The position numbers were made by a program, and so were the translations under genes. A stretch of DNA of 64,000 bases, from IMG/VR virus record IMGVR_UViG_3300023240_001094, positions 1 to 64,000 of that record; one strand, written 5' to 3'. Shown one piece after another: positions 11,574 through 59,183 of the stretch; the stretch's first letter is position 1, and every line of letters begins with the position of its first letter. The notes under the pieces are model-generated. The model made no database searches and was not told the DNA's origin. It saw only the letters and a list, made by a program, of their open reading frames with translations. Source of the DNA: a virus.

Positions 11574-11729
11574 TTAGAATTCTTCGTCGTCATCTCCATC
11601 AAAGAAAGCATGCCCCGACACTTGGCCACACATAGAGCAAAATGAAGGTTCTTCTCTTTCGTCAACTACCACAACCCGAGTCTCTGAGCCACAGTAGTCG
11701 CATTCGCAAATGTATTCTGATAGTTTCAA
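11574..11729 (-). CDS. small zinc-ribbon protein
   Basis: CDYC...CSMC; TTG start after GAGG. Confidence 0.65.
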   Translation of the reverse strand: MKLSEYICECDYCGSETRVVVVDEREEPSFCSMCGQVSGHAFFDGDDDEEF

Positions 11730-11731
11730 TT

Positions 11732-11746
11732 TTATGCCTCGCAGTT
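11732..11746 (-). pseudogene. orphan nrdA 3'-end remnant (NCEA*)
   Basis: AAC TGC GAG GCA TAA mirrors the nrdA end SCEG*, on the far side of the inserted endonuclease gene. Confidence 0.5.
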
Positions 11747-11754
11747 CTAATTTG

Positions 11755-11823
11755 TATAAATAGTAATGTAGGTCACGGAATTGCACTTCCCACCTACTCT
11801 AGAAACAAAAGGAATTCCAGTTC
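11755..11823 (+). promoter_or_regulatory. late promoter TATAAATA plus structured leader, copy A
   Basis: GTAGGT-CAC-GGAA-TTGCAC-TTCC-C-ACCTAC-TCTAGAAACA...TTCCAG; covaries with 59112-59183. Confidence 0.8.
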
Positions 11824-12474
11824 ATGTATATATATATATATGTCTATTATGTTTACGCCTACATCAGACTTGACGGCACACCCTACTATATAGGTAAAGG
11901 GAGGGGCAAAAGAGCATATTCAAAACAACATTCTGTATGGGTTCCTAATAGAGAATCTGGACAAATAGTTATACTTGAAAATAATCTTTCGGAAGTAGGC
12001 GCATTTGCGATTGAAAGAAGACTTATCAGATGGTGGGGCAAGAAACACGAAGGTGGACTACTCTACAATAAAGCCGATGGTGGTGAAGGTAGAAGTGGAT
12101 ATAGTATATCTCGGCCACACACAGAAGAATCTAAGCAAAAAATGTCTAAAGCAAAGCAAGGTAAAAGTTATCCGAGACTTACTTCAGCTAATAGAAAAAC
12201 TGCCGAAAAAAGACGAAATGTCCGTCTATCTGAAGAACATAAAGCCAAAATATCTGCTGGCATGAAAGGTAGAGTTATGACAGAAAATCATAAAGCAAAT
12301 TTATCTAAGGCTAATGTTGGTCGTCCAGTAAGTGACGAAACCCGTTTGAAAATGAAACTAAAAAATTCAGTCAAGTCTACCTGTCCACACTGTGGTAAAG
12401 GAGGTGGTGGTAGCGCAATGAAGCGCTACCACTTTGATAATTGTAAGTCTATTAAACATTCATCCTTCGCATGA
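11824..12474 (+). mobile_element. free-standing GIY-YIG homing endonuclease with NUMOD3 repeats
   Basis: YYVYAY...PYYIGKG, LYN; repeated HTEESKQKMS / LSEEHKAKIS motifs; opposite strand, convergent with nrdA. Confidence 0.88.
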
Positions 12475-14103
12475 AATGCATAGCATGATATCACGCACAA
12501 GTTCTTGTGCTGGATTAGATGACCGCTGGTAGTAGAAAGTTTTTACACCCAAACGCCATCCTTCAATAATCAACGCGTTTATGTCTTTTGTTGATGCAGT
12601 TGGTGGAATCATAAGATTGAGTGATTGGCTCTGGTCTATATATTCTTGTCTTGCAGCAGCCTGCTGAACAACATTAATAGGACTAATCTCAGAGAATGTC
12701 TTAAACACATCTTTTTCATTCTGAGTGAGAAAGTCAAGATGCTGAACAGAACCTTTCCTCATTAAGATTGAATCCCAGGTTGCATCATCATTCTTGCCGT
12801 AATGATCTAGACATCTAGCAAGATAACGGTTCTTATACGTGAAGGACCCTTTAGCCAAATCCTTAACAAAGTAGTTTGATGCAAGTGGCTCGATTGACGG
12901 CGATACTTGACCAAGGATAAATGATGAAGATGTTGTAGGAGCGATGGCGCAACGAGTAAGATTGCGTACATCATAACCCATAAGACCTGACGGAACACCA
13001 TACTCTTCTGCCATTTCCTTTGATGCGTCAAGTGATTTTTCATCGATGAATCTACTAATTTCTTCAGTTAGTTCAAGTGCTTGGAATGACTCAAATGGGA
13101 TCATTTTCTTCTGTAGAAGTGTGTGCCATCCAAGCTGACCAATTCCAAGAGCACGCCAGGTTTTTGCAAAGAGATTGGCCGACTCCATAAACTTAAGACC
13201 TTCTGTTTTGCGGATATATTCTTCCATAACAGCATCAAGGAAATATGTGAGAGTTTCTACAGCGTCAGTATATTTCCATTTGTCCCAGGTAGAAAGGTTC
13301 ATTGATGATAGGTTACACACAAATGTCCATTCATCGCTTGATGGCAGACAGATTTCTGAGCAGAGATTTGACGCCCAGATAGGAATGTTTTTGTCTTTAA
13401 GAACCTGTGGTTTATTGTCATTCACAGTATCAGAGAAGAACAGATATGGATAACCAGTTTCCTTGCGCTTTCTGAGCACCTTAGCCCATACTTCGCGTTT
13501 GTCTGCATCGCCATCAATCATTTCCTGCATCCAGTAATCTGGAATAGTAACACCAATTGAGATATTCTGAATGGTTGCACCAGGTTCACGGATTTCTAGG
13601 AATTCCATAATATCAGGGTTATCAATGTTAAGATAACCAGCAAAAGCCCCGCGGCGAGTGGTACCTTGAGAAATAACGTCAGTGCCAACATCAAACAAGC
13701 GAAGGTAATGAACTGCTCCATCTGCTTTGCCTCCTCCTTTAATTTTACTACCACGTGGTCGAATATCACCAAAATATCCAGATGTTCCTGCGCCGAGTTT
13801 GGTTTGGACACCAACCTCAGCTGTTTTTTGTAGAATAGCCTCAATAGAATCTTCCACGTAAACACCATTACATGAAATAGGAAGCCCTGTTTCTTCACCA
13901 AAATTTGACCATACTGGAGAGGAAAGGCTATAAAAACCCTGACTCATATAATCATAGAACTTGTTAGCAAATCCCGGGTAGTCCAAGATTTCTTCTGCTG
14001 CTTCCGCAATTCTGCGTACGCGATCTTCAGGAGTCACACCTGGTTGTAAATACCCACGACTGAGGAACGTGCGTGAATCGTCGTTTAGCCATTTAAATGC
14101 CAT
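12460..14103 (-). CDS. nrdA: ribonucleotide reductase alpha subunit (no ATP cone; class Id-like)
   Basis: PISC, SNLCSEI, VCNL, AIAPT, KTFYY, C-terminal CISCEG. Confidence 0.95.
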   Translation of the reverse strand: MAFKWLNDDSRTFLSRGYLQPGVTPEDRVRRIAEAAEEILDYPGFANKFYDYMSQGFYSLSSPVWSNFGEETGLPISCNGVYVEDSIEAILQKTAEVGVQTKLGAGTSGYFGDIRPRGSKIKGGGKADGAVHYLRLFDVGTDVISQGTTRRGAFAGYLNIDNPDIMEFLEIREPGATIQNISIGVTIPDYWMQEMIDGDADKREVWAKVLRKRKETGYPYLFFSDTVNDNKPQVLKDKNIPIWASNLCSEICLPSSDEWTFVCNLSSMNLSTWDKWKYTDAVETLTYFLDAVMEEYIRKTEGLKFMESANLFAKTWRALGIGQLGWHTLLQKKMIPFESFQALELTEEISRFIDEKSLDASKEMAEEYGVPSGLMGYDVRNLTRCAIAPTTSSSFILGQVSPSIEPLASNYFVKDLAKGSFTYKNRYLARCLDHYGKNDDATWDSILMRKGSVQHLDFLTQNEKDVFKTFSEISPINVVQQAAARQEYIDQSQSLNLMIPPTASTKDINALIIEGWRLGVKTFYYQRSSNPAQELVRDIMLCISCEG

Positions 14104-29300: not shown

Positions 29301-29473
29301 GATACGGTTTCTGTTTCTAGGCCACGTATCAGACCCACATGGCTTATGCCGCTAGGGCAGAACCAAAAGGAGATGCATTTGTGTTTGCATTTAGTAGTTG
29401 TGACTGAATAACGTAGGTCAACACGGTAAACTCCATTTCATTTTCACACCTGTCGATCCTAAATTTCAGCCCC
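29301..29473 (-). ncRNA. ssrA: tmRNA coding piece (permuted two-piece tmRNA)
   Basis: Starts GGGGCTGAAATTTAGGATCGAC; tag frame 29388-29344 = ANTNASPFGSALAA*; ends with alpha-type ...AACAGAAACCG. Confidence 0.9.
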
Positions 29474-29917
29474 ATCATCATTGTTCTTTTTCTTAGCATG
29501 AAAGTTTAAACCAGGACTAACTGCCTTTTTACCTTGGCCTCTAATCCAACCATCAGGAACATCTGCTCCTTCTTTAAAGCAACTTCTTTGAGTAGGATCA
29601 CTAGGATTGTGATACCATTTCAAACCTTGTGTAGAACCTTTGCTTCTTGTATAGGGTCTGTATTTCATACCCTTACGATTAGCATTGCCTTTAGCCGCAC
29701 CCTTTTTACCAGATTCGCTTAACATTTCTCTAACCAATTCTTCTTTAGTTAAGAGACCTGCTAAACCTTGCCAAGCCAATTTATCTTCCCATCTACCATA
29801 CTTCTCATATAGATTTTTATGCGCTTCTGCATGTTCTTCGATGGTAAGTTCTACTAAGTTACTTTCTTCGTCTGATCCGCCCAAATGCTTTGGGATGATA
29901 TGGTGTTTATGTTTCAT
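29459..29917 (-). mobile_element. HNH homing endonuclease in the tmRNA intervening segment
   Basis: HKHHIIPKHLGGSD...NLVELT.EEH..AH; C-terminal KWYHN...PDGWIRG. Confidence 0.88.
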
Positions 29918-29930
29918 TCTAAGCCCTCTT

Positions 29931-29963
29931 ATCTATCCTATTTCTATTTATAATAGGATAGAT
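29931..29963 (-). promoter_or_regulatory. late promoter inside an 11-bp hairpin
   Basis: ATCTATCCTAT-TATAAATAGAA-ATAGGATAGAT. Confidence 0.75.
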
Positions 29964-29977
29964 TTCAAGAACAATCA

Positions 29978-30035
29978 TGGTGAAGCTGCTGGGTACCGCC
30001 CCCAGGTCCAGAATGTGTCCACGTTGCTTCAACGT
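29978..30035 (-). ncRNA. ssrA: tmRNA acceptor piece
   Basis: GAC-CTGGG-GGCGGTA-CCCAG-CAGCTTC-ACCA; alpha-type T-loop; pairs with GGGGCTG giving G3:U70; 5' end approximate. Confidence 0.88.
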
Positions 30036-30117
30036 TTACAAGTTAATTTATACTATTTCGAGCAGTTTGTACACAGCCAATATTATTAATTCATTGGCTG
30101 TGTCATTAATGTATCAC

Positions 30118-46273: not shown

Positions 46274-46302
46274 TATAAATAGTGTTGTAAAAACTATTTA
46301 TA
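46274..46302. promoter_or_regulatory. inverted pair of late promoters forming a hairpin
   Basis: TATAAATAG-N11-CTATTTATA directly before the HNH RBS. Confidence 0.7.
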
Positions 46303-46312
46303 GGAATTTAAT

Positions 46313-46864
46313 ATGAAACCTTATAGAAAAATCTGGATTGATAATTTTGGTAATATTCCAACCGATGATGATGGTAGATCATTTGAAATACACCACATTG
46401 ATGGGAATAGTTTAAACAACAATATCTCTAACCTAAAATGCGTCAGTATAAAAGAGCACTACGAAATACATCTTCAACAAGCAAATAAACCCCAGGATCT
46501 AAAAGAGATAAGATCCAAAGCAACAACAAATATGCATAAAAAACTTTTAGCTGAAAACCAACATTGGACAAAAACTGATGAATTTAAACAAAAAATATCT
46601 AAAATATCATCAGAAAGAAATAAAAGATTAGTTGATGAAAAAACTCATAATTTTGTCACAAACAATCCAAGTGTTAAACTGTCCAAGGCTAGTCAACATA
46701 ATTGGCAAAAAGCTAAAAATACAGTACCCTGTTATGATAAAAATGGCAACTACTTGAGAATACCATCCGATGTTTTTCACTCCCAGCAAGGCCCTAAGGA
46801 ATGCTGGGAATATGTGCATAATACTAGCATAGAAGGAAAAAAACGTAAATCACTCAGTGAGTAA
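46313..46864 (+). mobile_element. free-standing HNH homing endonuclease
   Basis: YRKIW...EIHHIDGN..NN.ISNL.C...EH..IH; opposite strand, AT-rich, convergent overlap with hsp20. Confidence 0.85.
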
Positions 46865-58551: not shown

Positions 58552-59111
58552 TCAATATTCACTATATTTCTTATTAGGACTTTTACATCTGTGTGATATA
58601 GTGGTTCTATGAATTCTAGTTAATTTAGATGCTTCTGTGAGTGTTTCATATGTGGAACCATCAATATAGACAGGTTGTGCTCTTGGGTTATCTTTGGGGT
58701 TATCTTTGCCTTTCATGATAGGAAGATGATGATTTCCCGCTGCAAATCTCTTTTGTATAACTTTGAAAGATGAGGCTTTGGTATGGAGTTTGCAATCCTT
58801 ACGGCTTGCTTCTGTTTATCAGTTGGGGTTCTTCCATAAAATGGATTACCTTCTCCACTATTTTTATCTGACATTTTTTTCTTCCATGCCAAAGACTTGG
58901 GTTTCTTTTGCAGCTCTTTAATAGCTTCTGCTTTACTAACCTGTCCGAGTAACATTCTACTGGCAACCAGGTCTTGATGCCATCCGTGTTTGTTGTATAA
59001 ATCAAGATGAGCTTGTGCGTGTTCTTCAATTGTAAGTTCTACTAAATTTGACGGATCGTCTGATCCACCCATATGCTTAGGAACTATGTGATGTTTGTGA
59101 TATATAGTCAT
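58552..59111 (-). pseudogene. frameshifted HNH homing endonuclease (NUMOD3/NUMOD1 tail)
   Basis: HKHHIVPKHMGGSDD.SNL; shifted frames continue NPRAQPVYIDGSTYETLTEASKLL and IHRTTISHRCKS. Confidence 0.8.
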
Positions 59112-59183
59112 GCTGGAACTTTCTTTCTTGTGTTTCTAGAGTAGTTGGATGTTGGTGCATCGTGAACTACATTTATATTTATA
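59112..59183 (-). promoter_or_regulatory. late promoter plus structured leader, copy B
   Basis: TATAAATA; GTAGTT-CAC-GATG-CACCAA-CATC-C-AACTAC-TCTAGAAACA...TTCCAG. Confidence 0.8.

Follow-up and report, generated by a model that had tools for sequence, protein, structure and literature searches.

A covarying two-helix leader between facing late-promoter boxes at homing endonuclease genes of uncultured T4-like phages, with a candidate cis-antisense RNA

T4-like phages carry homing endonucleases as their main selfish elements, and only a few coliphage cases show how the expression of these genes is kept harmless. Two free-standing homing endonuclease genes in the 64,000-nucleotide (nt) stretch of DNA analysed here (‘the window’; positions 1 to 64,000 of the IMG/VR virus record IMGVR_UViG_3300023240_001094) are each preceded by a leader containing two helices, P2 and P3. 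The leader belongs to a family of at least 162 distinct elements parsed from IMG/VR loci, in which both helices covary, mismatches are distributed unequally between the two strands, and the late-promoter box upstream of the leader is faced by a second box written into codons 2–4 of the endonuclease gene. In the reading favoured here, which is held tentatively and at a little under even confidence, the convergent late promoters would make both the endonuclease mRNA and a structured cis-antisense RNA of ~65–75 nt lying over the ribosome-binding site (RBS) and AUG.

The two window copies share one plan: a TATAAATA box, a 5-nt spacer, a 6-bp stem, an internal loop with C-A-C on the 5′ side facing a lone C on the 3′ side, a 4-bp stem and a 6-nt loop. 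A single T follows, then CTAGAA…TTCCAG around the Shine-Dalgarno sequence, then the ATG of an open reading frame (ORF). The preliminary description of these leaders had read the 6-bp stem, CAC/C loop, 4-bp stem and 6-nt loop exactly from the sequence, and minimum free energy (MFE) folds agree with it; it overlooked the conserved block in codons 2–4 and the strand pattern of A.C and G.U mismatches. The features of both copies are as follows.

11755-11826, plus strand: leader copy 1, ahead of a GIY-YIG-type/NUMOD3 ORF
11755-11762, plus strand: forward late-promoter box TATAAATA, copy 1; predicted +1 is the G at 11768
11768-11797, plus strand: P2 hairpin, copy 1; outer stem 11768-73/11792-97, inner stem 11777-80/11787-90, loop 11781-86
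11799-11820, plus strand: P3 helix, copy 1; arms 11799-11804 / 11815-11820, A.C at the third pair, Shine-Dalgarno sequence in the loop
11824-11826, plus strand: ATG, copy 1
11824-12474, plus strand: GIY-YIG-type/NUMOD3 homing endonuclease ORF, copy 1; 216 aa, N-terminus M-Y-I-Y
11827-11834, minus strand: reverse-strand box in codons 2–4, copy 1; variant TATATATA, 6 nt to the first base of P3′
11755-11821, minus strand: candidate cis-antisense RNA, copy 1, predicted from sequence and fold; P3′, P2′ and U-rich tail
59183-59109, minus strand: leader copy 2, ahead of an HNH/NUMOD3 ORF
59176-59183, minus strand: forward late-promoter box, copy 2
59141-59170, minus strand: P2 hairpin, copy 2
59113-59139, minus strand: P3 helix enclosing the Shine-Dalgarno region, copy 2
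59111-59109, minus strand: ATG, copy 2
58713-59111, minus strand: HNH/NUMOD3 endonuclease ORF, copy 2; 132 aa, starting M-T-I-Y-H-K-H-H
59099-59106, plus strand: reverse-strand box in codons 2–4, copy 2; variant GATATATA, 6 nt to P3′
59112-59183, plus strand: candidate cis-antisense RNA, copy 2, likewise predicted

In copy 1 the C-A-C occupies 11774-76, its middle base opposite C11791, and the downstream ORF matches Pfam NUMOD3 (E=7.4e-11), with a GIY…YIG-like N-terminus read from the sequence. The copy 2 box sits downstream of the terminator (59230-59209) of a gp23-like capsid gene. In the window, a 14-mer spanning the P2/P3 junction is found once in each of these two leaders and nowhere else; shuffled sequences gave a mean of 0.57 matches even with 2 mismatches tolerated. 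Folding of either sense copy gives the 6+4 bp hairpin, at modest single-sequence z scores of −0.8 to −1.6. These sense MFE folds contain P2 only; those of the antisense strand contain both hairpins (copy 1, MFE −16.3 kcal/mol, z −1.74; copy 2, MFE −14.3 kcal/mol, z −1.35).

Members of the family were recovered with two sequence patterns and a covariance model. The first pattern, anchored on the 3′ half of the leader, returned 39 stretches, about half of them full leaders; the other half belonged to an unrelated coding-sequence family with no box or hairpin and were dropped by eye. The second left the helices free (box, spacer, G, five bases, CRCG, 40–70 bases, ATGNNTATTTAT) and returned at least 120 stretches, yielding at least 102 distinct elements. 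The covariance model, a search of IMG/VR with which had been proposed at the outset, was restricted to the core (P2 through P3), leaving out box, promoter and ATG, and detected 58 copies in 10 large records (2, 3, 3, 4, 8, 1, 13, 16, 3 and 5 copies); one further copy in record G002 was detected by a first model (R1) only and missed by the core model (R2). Counts of box sequences and codons free of pattern bias were taken from the core-only set (50 hits with loci, 48 ORFs). One element, L064, was left out of pairing counts as a mis-parse, and 2/162 were skipped in counts of asymmetry, leaving 160 elements. The two jumbo phage records of ~360 kb, G008 and G009, carry 13 and 16 module copies, and several of those in G009 share an identical P2 stem and stand before paralogous GIY-YIG genes.

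Across the family, P2 consists of a 6-bp outer stem, then C, R, C on the 5′ side, then an inner stem of 3–4 bp and a variable loop. The R of the bulge pairs with the lone Y of the 3′ strand (G-C 66, A-U 15, A.C 20, G with U never). One linker base separates P2 from P3, in which the outer C-G and U-A pairs and the third-pair A.C are invariant or nearly so (A.C at P3 position 2 in 160/160; a compensated U-A at the first pair in two elements); the four or five inner pairs are free to vary with pairing kept, and the Shine-Dalgarno sequence lies in the loop and 3′ arm. That CTAGAA…TTCCAG encloses the RBS in a helix with an A.C mismatch had been proposed from the window copies. Since this pairing is without variation in their subfamily it is uninformative there, and confirmation comes from the wider family, in which 80.6% of P3 cells at k=3–7 are paired, compared with 49.7% in shuffles (maximum 55.4%).

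Covariation was tested on 103 cores in a MAFFT alignment not fitted to a structure. The compensatory changes first noticed between the two window copies recur throughout this sample, with double changes at 15/19 pairs and 422 compensatory cells, a level that 0/500 shuffles reached; in slid controls pairing falls to 30–41%. The antisense alignment gave 426 compensatory cells (0/500 shuffles). Both helices are confirmed as real and strongly covarying. Several common P2 loops are reverse complements of other common loops and recur in both orientations, as if hairpin tips flip, or as if only loop-loop complementarity matters. A hammerhead or K-turn reading of the bulge was rejected, the core motifs of either being missing from the sequence.

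A Pfam scan of 145 complete, distinct downstream ORFs bears out the contention that the leader is common to unrelated endonuclease families: NUMOD3 was found in 67, GIY-YIG in 12, SegE-type GIY-YIG in nine, HNH in 11, HNH_3 in eight, HNH_5 in three, and a TnsA-like endonuclease and the I-TevI DNA-binding domain in two each, and many of the remaining ORFs are, by eye, divergent GIY-YIG-like proteins. On these counts the module is specific to homing endonuclease genes and not to a single nuclease family. Single-linkage clustering had placed 143/153 downstream proteins in one cluster through shared NUMOD3-type modules, and Pfam counts were therefore used instead. Similarity among leader cores follows the genome and not the endonuclease family: identity is 0.72–0.75 within a genome and 0.67–0.68 between genomes, whether or not the proteins are related. 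This fits the portable cassette suggested in the preliminary description, and would be compatible either with cassette exchange or with co-adaptation to a shared trans-acting partner.

The module is new to Rfam. Rfam 15 returned tRNA and tmRNA_permuted only for the whole window at gathering threshold, and for both leaders in E-value mode, on either strand, the best score was 21.6 bits against thresholds of 40–90. Megablast of both loci against GenBank phages found no match, and blastn of three leaders against 50,697 GenBank phage records gave chance matches or none. The core model was found in 0/5 cultured relatives (Phage C48C1, Melnitz-3, HTVC008M, S-SKS1 and S-SSM7), an empty result that carries little weight. 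The suggestion that the RNA was undescribed stands for Rfam but not for the literature as a whole: hairpins with TATAAATA were reported by Dassa et al. 2009 (PMC2677866), and part of the module may already be in print.

Conservation runs on into the ORF. Codons 2–4 read NNT ATT TAT, nearly all module ORFs begin M-x-I-Y, and the conserved heptamer of these codons matches the reverse complement of the late box exactly, giving a second, facing NATAAATA box. Among the 48 core-only ORFs, codon 2 is any of 11 different codons and ends in T in 46/48 (background 33%), Ile is ATT in 41/43 (background 39%), and Tyr is TAT in 40/46 (background 73%). Frame-shifted cases conserve the nucleotides and not the residues: L209 and L215 start M-I-F, and in L189 the block lies 5 nt further in. 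Because of this codon bias and the frame-shifted cases, M-x-I-Y is best read as a nucleotide-level constraint, not a protein motif. A paralogous HNH gene in the window that lacks the leader begins M-K-H-K-H-H, with no T-I-Y.

On the forward strand, NATAAATA lies within 20 nt upstream in 45/50 core-only hits; on the reverse strand NATAAATA is present in 39/50, NGTAAATA in 6/50 and NATATATA in 2/50. Reverse boxes vary at positions 1 and 2, as forward boxes do, and the most frequent reverse octamer is AATAAATA, with A at −13. T4 late boxes occupy −13 to −6, with A instead of T at −13 at nine of 50 listed T4 late sites (PMC2988020), and NATAAATA is the cyanophage late consensus (PMC2984593). The forward box stands 5 nt from P2 in 92/160 elements (3–5 nt in 155/160) and the reverse box 6 nt from P3′ in 90/150, 7 nt in 39/150 and 8 nt in 18/150 (6–8 nt in 147/150). 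Given boxes at −13 to −6, each predicted +1 coincides with the first base of a hairpin or is adjacent to it, and the structure, as had been claimed for the window copies, is wholly downstream of the predicted late start. One locus (G002:236867) has no forward box, yet its helices are kept, its P3 arms are compensated and its reverse box is perfect. The heptamer admits two readings, as a partner of the forward box in read-through RNA (a pairing termed P1) or as a late box on the other strand.

The strand asymmetry bears on this choice. Nearly every non-canonical cell on the mRNA strand is an A.C or C.A mismatch, equivalent to a G.U wobble when the opposite strand is read. Over the 160 elements, A.C outnumbers G.U by 11 to 2 in the outer stem of P2, 29 to 0 at the bulge pair, and 23 to 0 and 36 to 0 at P3 positions 3 and 4. 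In MAFFT alignments, paired cells make up 96.9% on the antisense strand and 86.6% on the sense strand (97.6% for P3′ versus 72.0% for P3). Core MFE is lower on the antisense strand in 152/160 elements (mean −16.75 versus −12.67 kcal/mol), and RNAalifold predicts both helices on that strand only (−15.51 versus −13.17). The asymmetry is seen regardless of the orientation of the upstream neighbour (same strand, A.C 28 versus G.U 1; opposite strand, 67 versus 14), which argues for a transcript with its own promoter. As judged from these comparisons, the pattern indicates that the helices have probably been selected at least as much on the antisense strand. The preliminary description took the structure for a cis-regulatory mRNA leader; the structure is real and covaries, but the excess of A.C over G.U on the mRNA strand favours the antisense, and a sense leader is therefore probably not the whole story.

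In the convergent-promoter reading, free-standing endonuclease genes of uncultured T4-like phages would carry at their 5′ ends a self-contained module for control of expression, in which two late boxes face one another ~75–90 bp apart. The forward box would start the endonuclease mRNA exactly at the base of P2, with P3 and its Shine-Dalgarno sequence next and then the AUG. The reverse box would start a transcript one base before P3′, and its being written into codons 2–4 is the proposed cause of unrelated endonucleases all beginning M-x-I-Y. This transcript would comprise P3′ and P2′ and end in the U-rich complement of the forward box, and would be fully complementary to the 5′ untranslated region, Shine-Dalgarno sequence and start codon of the mRNA; by its geometry the predicted overlap takes in both the RBS and the start codon, since the reverse box lies in codons 2–4 and P3′ holds the complement of the Shine-Dalgarno sequence. 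The helices would be maintained mainly for the antisense RNA, in which a G.U corresponds to an A.C of the mRNA, so that the antisense RNA would be stably folded and the ribosome-binding region of the mRNA weakly paired. The antisense RNA might limit translation of the endonuclease, convergent transcription might limit synthesis of its mRNA, or both, much as RNA-OUT of IS10 acts against RNA-IN. A stronger form of the proposal, that the late promoter in codons 2–4 gives rise to a new family of small cis-antisense RNAs which also act in trans, as a multicopy inhibition capping endonuclease output, is judged unlikely. Trans action on all copies of a genome is suggested because leaders are more alike within than between genomes; if it were true, the cap would be genome-wide in phages with up to 16 such endonuclease genes.

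Several observations weigh against convergent promoters and an antisense RNA. Of the 162 elements, 102 came from the pattern that demanded TATAAATA, CRCG and ATGNNTATTTAT, and the set unbiased with respect to the box is the 50 core-only hits. Counts of A.C and G.U were made on a fitted parse whose register accepts both equally, although MAFFT-based counts agree, and the structure used in the antisense test is the RNAalifold prediction from that same alignment. The invariant A.C could instead serve on the sense strand, by weakening the RBS helix. The reverse boxes of both window copies read ATATATA, not ATAAATA, and may be weak or dead in these copies; the same variant is the forward box of a relative, L014. 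The U-rich tail passes a simple T-run test in 153/160 elements, but so do 211/306 other TATAAATA sites, and it is weak independent evidence because it is largely the complement of the forward box. A simple terminator scan of the window, with bulged stems beyond its reach, calls the capsid gene terminator only and not P2′. DNA of this record is present in 20 DNA sequencing runs, all labelled salt lake metagenome, and none of the listed runs containing it is an RNA run.

The foremost alternative, considered somewhat unlikely, is a cis-regulatory leader acting on the sense strand only, as an elaboration of the T4 I-TevI/mobE/segB scheme. In read-through RNA the box would pair with codons 2–4 as P1, closing with P2 and P3 a three-way junction in which the Shine-Dalgarno sequence and AUG are hidden; late transcripts would lack P1, carry P2 as a 5′-terminal stabilising hairpin and a weak P3, and be translated. 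P2 and P3 are downstream of the predicted +1 and are not helices lost from late transcripts, as P1 would be. The 7-nt complementarity between box and codons 2–4 is near-universal, box changes in L215 and L014 are matched by changes in the partner, and the 5-nt forward spacer of the 92 elements noted above puts +1 on the first base of P2. In the simple relatives L058 and L056 (record G001), box and spacer pair perfectly with ATG and codons 2–4 around a loop that holds the Shine-Dalgarno sequence only, the classic arrangement (PMC2988022, PMC3014915); the same sequences, however, are also perfect face-to-face boxes. Predicted accessibility of the translation initiation region is higher in the late form in 114/160 elements, the difference being slight (0.495 versus 0.447 in read-through RNA). 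P1 itself is weak, with a mean pairing probability of 0.21 at 37 °C that exceeds 0.5 in 30/160 only, and there is no covariation past the seven invariant pairs: its flanks pair in 44/144 cases against 40.8 expected and 53/144 against 50.5, within one standard deviation of shuffles, and an extension of P1 beyond 7 bp was rejected. Moreover, the upstream gene is on the other strand in 88/143 cases, so that no sense read-through would come from that gene, and the bias of A.C over G.U is left unexplained.

The same orientation of neighbours (88/143 on the opposite strand, 34 on the same strand, 21 ambiguous) is what would be expected if the reverse box were an outward promoter that drives the flanking phage gene, offsetting the insertion and making the endonuclease hard to delete, with P3′ and P2′ as the 5′ leader of the neighbour's late mRNA. 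At copy 1 a minus-strand zinc-ribbon ORF begins ~35 nt past P2′ (start placed by eye), and T4 endonuclease genes do embed promoters of adjacent genes, for example segG for gene 32 (PMC2988022). However, the antisense signature and the reverse box are equally strong in the 34 elements with a co-oriented neighbour (A.C 28 versus G.U 1); a perfect first base of the reverse box is found in 20/78 divergent cases and 13/29 others, with no enrichment in the divergent class; and at copy 2, which is co-oriented, the reverse transcript would run antisense into the capsid gene terminator. An outward promoter is accordingly rated very unlikely as the explanation of the module, although neither it nor the sense-only leader is mutually exclusive with convergent promoters and an antisense RNA. 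A DNA-level element, whether a recombination hot spot or cassette junction (PeSL-like) or an operator, with hairpins forming in single-stranded DNA or as a cruciform, would suit the greater likeness of leaders within a genome whatever the relatedness of the proteins, and the leader and first four codons shared by unrelated endonuclease families, but is highly improbable: compensatory change in two helices with variable loops points to selection on a folded single strand and not on a duplex site, and a common autorepressor operator is unlikely because the endonucleases differ in their DNA-binding modules.

The source of the window is a 73-kb IMG/VR fragment of a T4-like phage, whose capsid protein shares 60–66% identity with its counterparts in Kyanoviridae-type phages (Phage C48C1, Melnitz, HTVC008M and cyanophages). 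The neighbour of copy 1 is a small Cys-rich, zinc-ribbon-like ORF (11574-11786, minus strand) starting ~35 nt past the leader; it probably starts, as read by eye, at a TTG near 11733, for which the Shine-Dalgarno sequence would be GAGG, and the listed 70-aa version, from a GTG at 11786, would overlap P2. On its other side the copy 1 endonuclease gene adjoins, in opposite orientation, a 547-aa ribonucleotide reductase large-subunit-like ORF (12460-14103, minus strand), a placement that recalls the endonuclease insertions at nrd genes of T4-family phages. The HNH gene of copy 2 has a second, overlapping ORF of 54 aa (58552-58716, minus strand), which aligns with residues 127–172, the C-terminal DNA-binding part, of an unsplit 175-aa homologue (L036), and is also a weak match to the I-TevI DNA-binding domain; either a frameshift or a natural split of the gene accounts for the two ORFs.

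Other endonuclease loci were seen in the window. A permuted two-piece transfer-messenger RNA (tmRNA) gene at 29344-30039 (minus strand; Rfam RF04321, 59.1 bits against a gathering score of 47) has ~480 nt inserted between model positions 86 and 87; this insert contains a late box (29952) of its own and an HNH endonuclease ORF with the N-terminus M-K-H-K-H-H-I-I-P. A homing endonuclease gene thus occupies the intervening segment of a phage tmRNA gene. At 46274-46302 (both strands) a perfect 10-nt inverted repeat, consisting of a late box and two further bases, has its halves 9 nt apart, giving back-to-back late boxes; the plus side leads to an HNH-type ORF (start near 46313; Y-R-K-I-W…G-N-I-P, like the HNH_3 group) and the minus side to a late gene.

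The leader is a compact RNA module, highly conserved and present in many copies, whose covariation is unusually clean, and it marks genes from no fewer than three nuclease superfamilies in uncultured aquatic and jumbo phages. It is a ready candidate for an Rfam family, and in metagenomic phage contigs its core model can be used as a sensitive means of annotating late promoters and the starts of endonuclease genes. Were the antisense reading true, the module would represent a general antisense control system for homing endonucleases, and a clear case in which a regulatory DNA signal dictates the N-terminal peptide of unrelated proteins.

Literature on the motif, or on antisense control of endonuclease genes, was limited to the works cited here, within largely open-access main texts. 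In the T4 family, the endonuclease genes I-TevI, I-TevII, I-TevIII, segB and Aeh1 mobE combine a late promoter with a hairpin at the RBS (PMC2988022, PMC3014915). The module resembles these in having a late promoter immediately upstream and a structure around the Shine-Dalgarno sequence and AUG that is thought to restrict translation. It differs from them, as they are described in those texts, in that each of theirs is one hairpin, with a 5′ arm that late RNA lacks, whereas its two covarying helices are inside the predicted late transcript, and also in having a box complement in codons 2–4 and a mismatch pattern favouring the antisense strand. Dassa et al. 2009 found hairpins upstream of 15/16 free-standing endonuclease genes in marine metagenomic ‘fractured genes’, a setting of aquatic phage-like loci; ten carried TATAAATA, and two conserved motifs were mutually complementary (PMC2677866). 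They may be the same element or a simple form of it, although the passages of that text concerned contain no covariation model, two-helix architecture, antisense reading or Rfam family. In Aeromonas phage 25, a stable hairpin immediately precedes the RBS of seg43(25) but leaves it unsequestered (PMC2988022). By its description there this hairpin resembles P2, as a single case of no known function.

PeSL elements carry early (sigma-70 type) promoters and flank novel ORFs in general. In T4-type phages they are repeated modules of promoter and stem-loop, proposed to serve modular shuffling (PMC2839356, PMC4122927). The module differs from PeSLs in its late boxes and in its specificity for endonuclease genes; a scan of the window leaders found no sigma-70-like site on the leader strand, the box being of late type. 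A precedent for antisense transcription over a homing endonuclease gene in a T4-like aquatic phage is CfrI of cyanophage S-PM2, an antisense RNA of ~225 nt that lies over the endonuclease gene and links it to psbA (PMC2984593). The likeness is one of description, and the candidate RNA of the module differs in being ~70 nt and lying over the 5′ end. In IS10/Tn10, RNA-OUT is a stable stem-loop antisense RNA transcribed from a facing promoter across the RBS of RNA-IN, and it can act in trans among copies. As there, the 5′ end of a nuclease gene of a mobile element is overlapped by a candidate antisense RNA; unlike IS10, with which it has no sequence or structural homology, the module has T4-type late boxes, two hairpins and an antisense RNA that is so far predicted.

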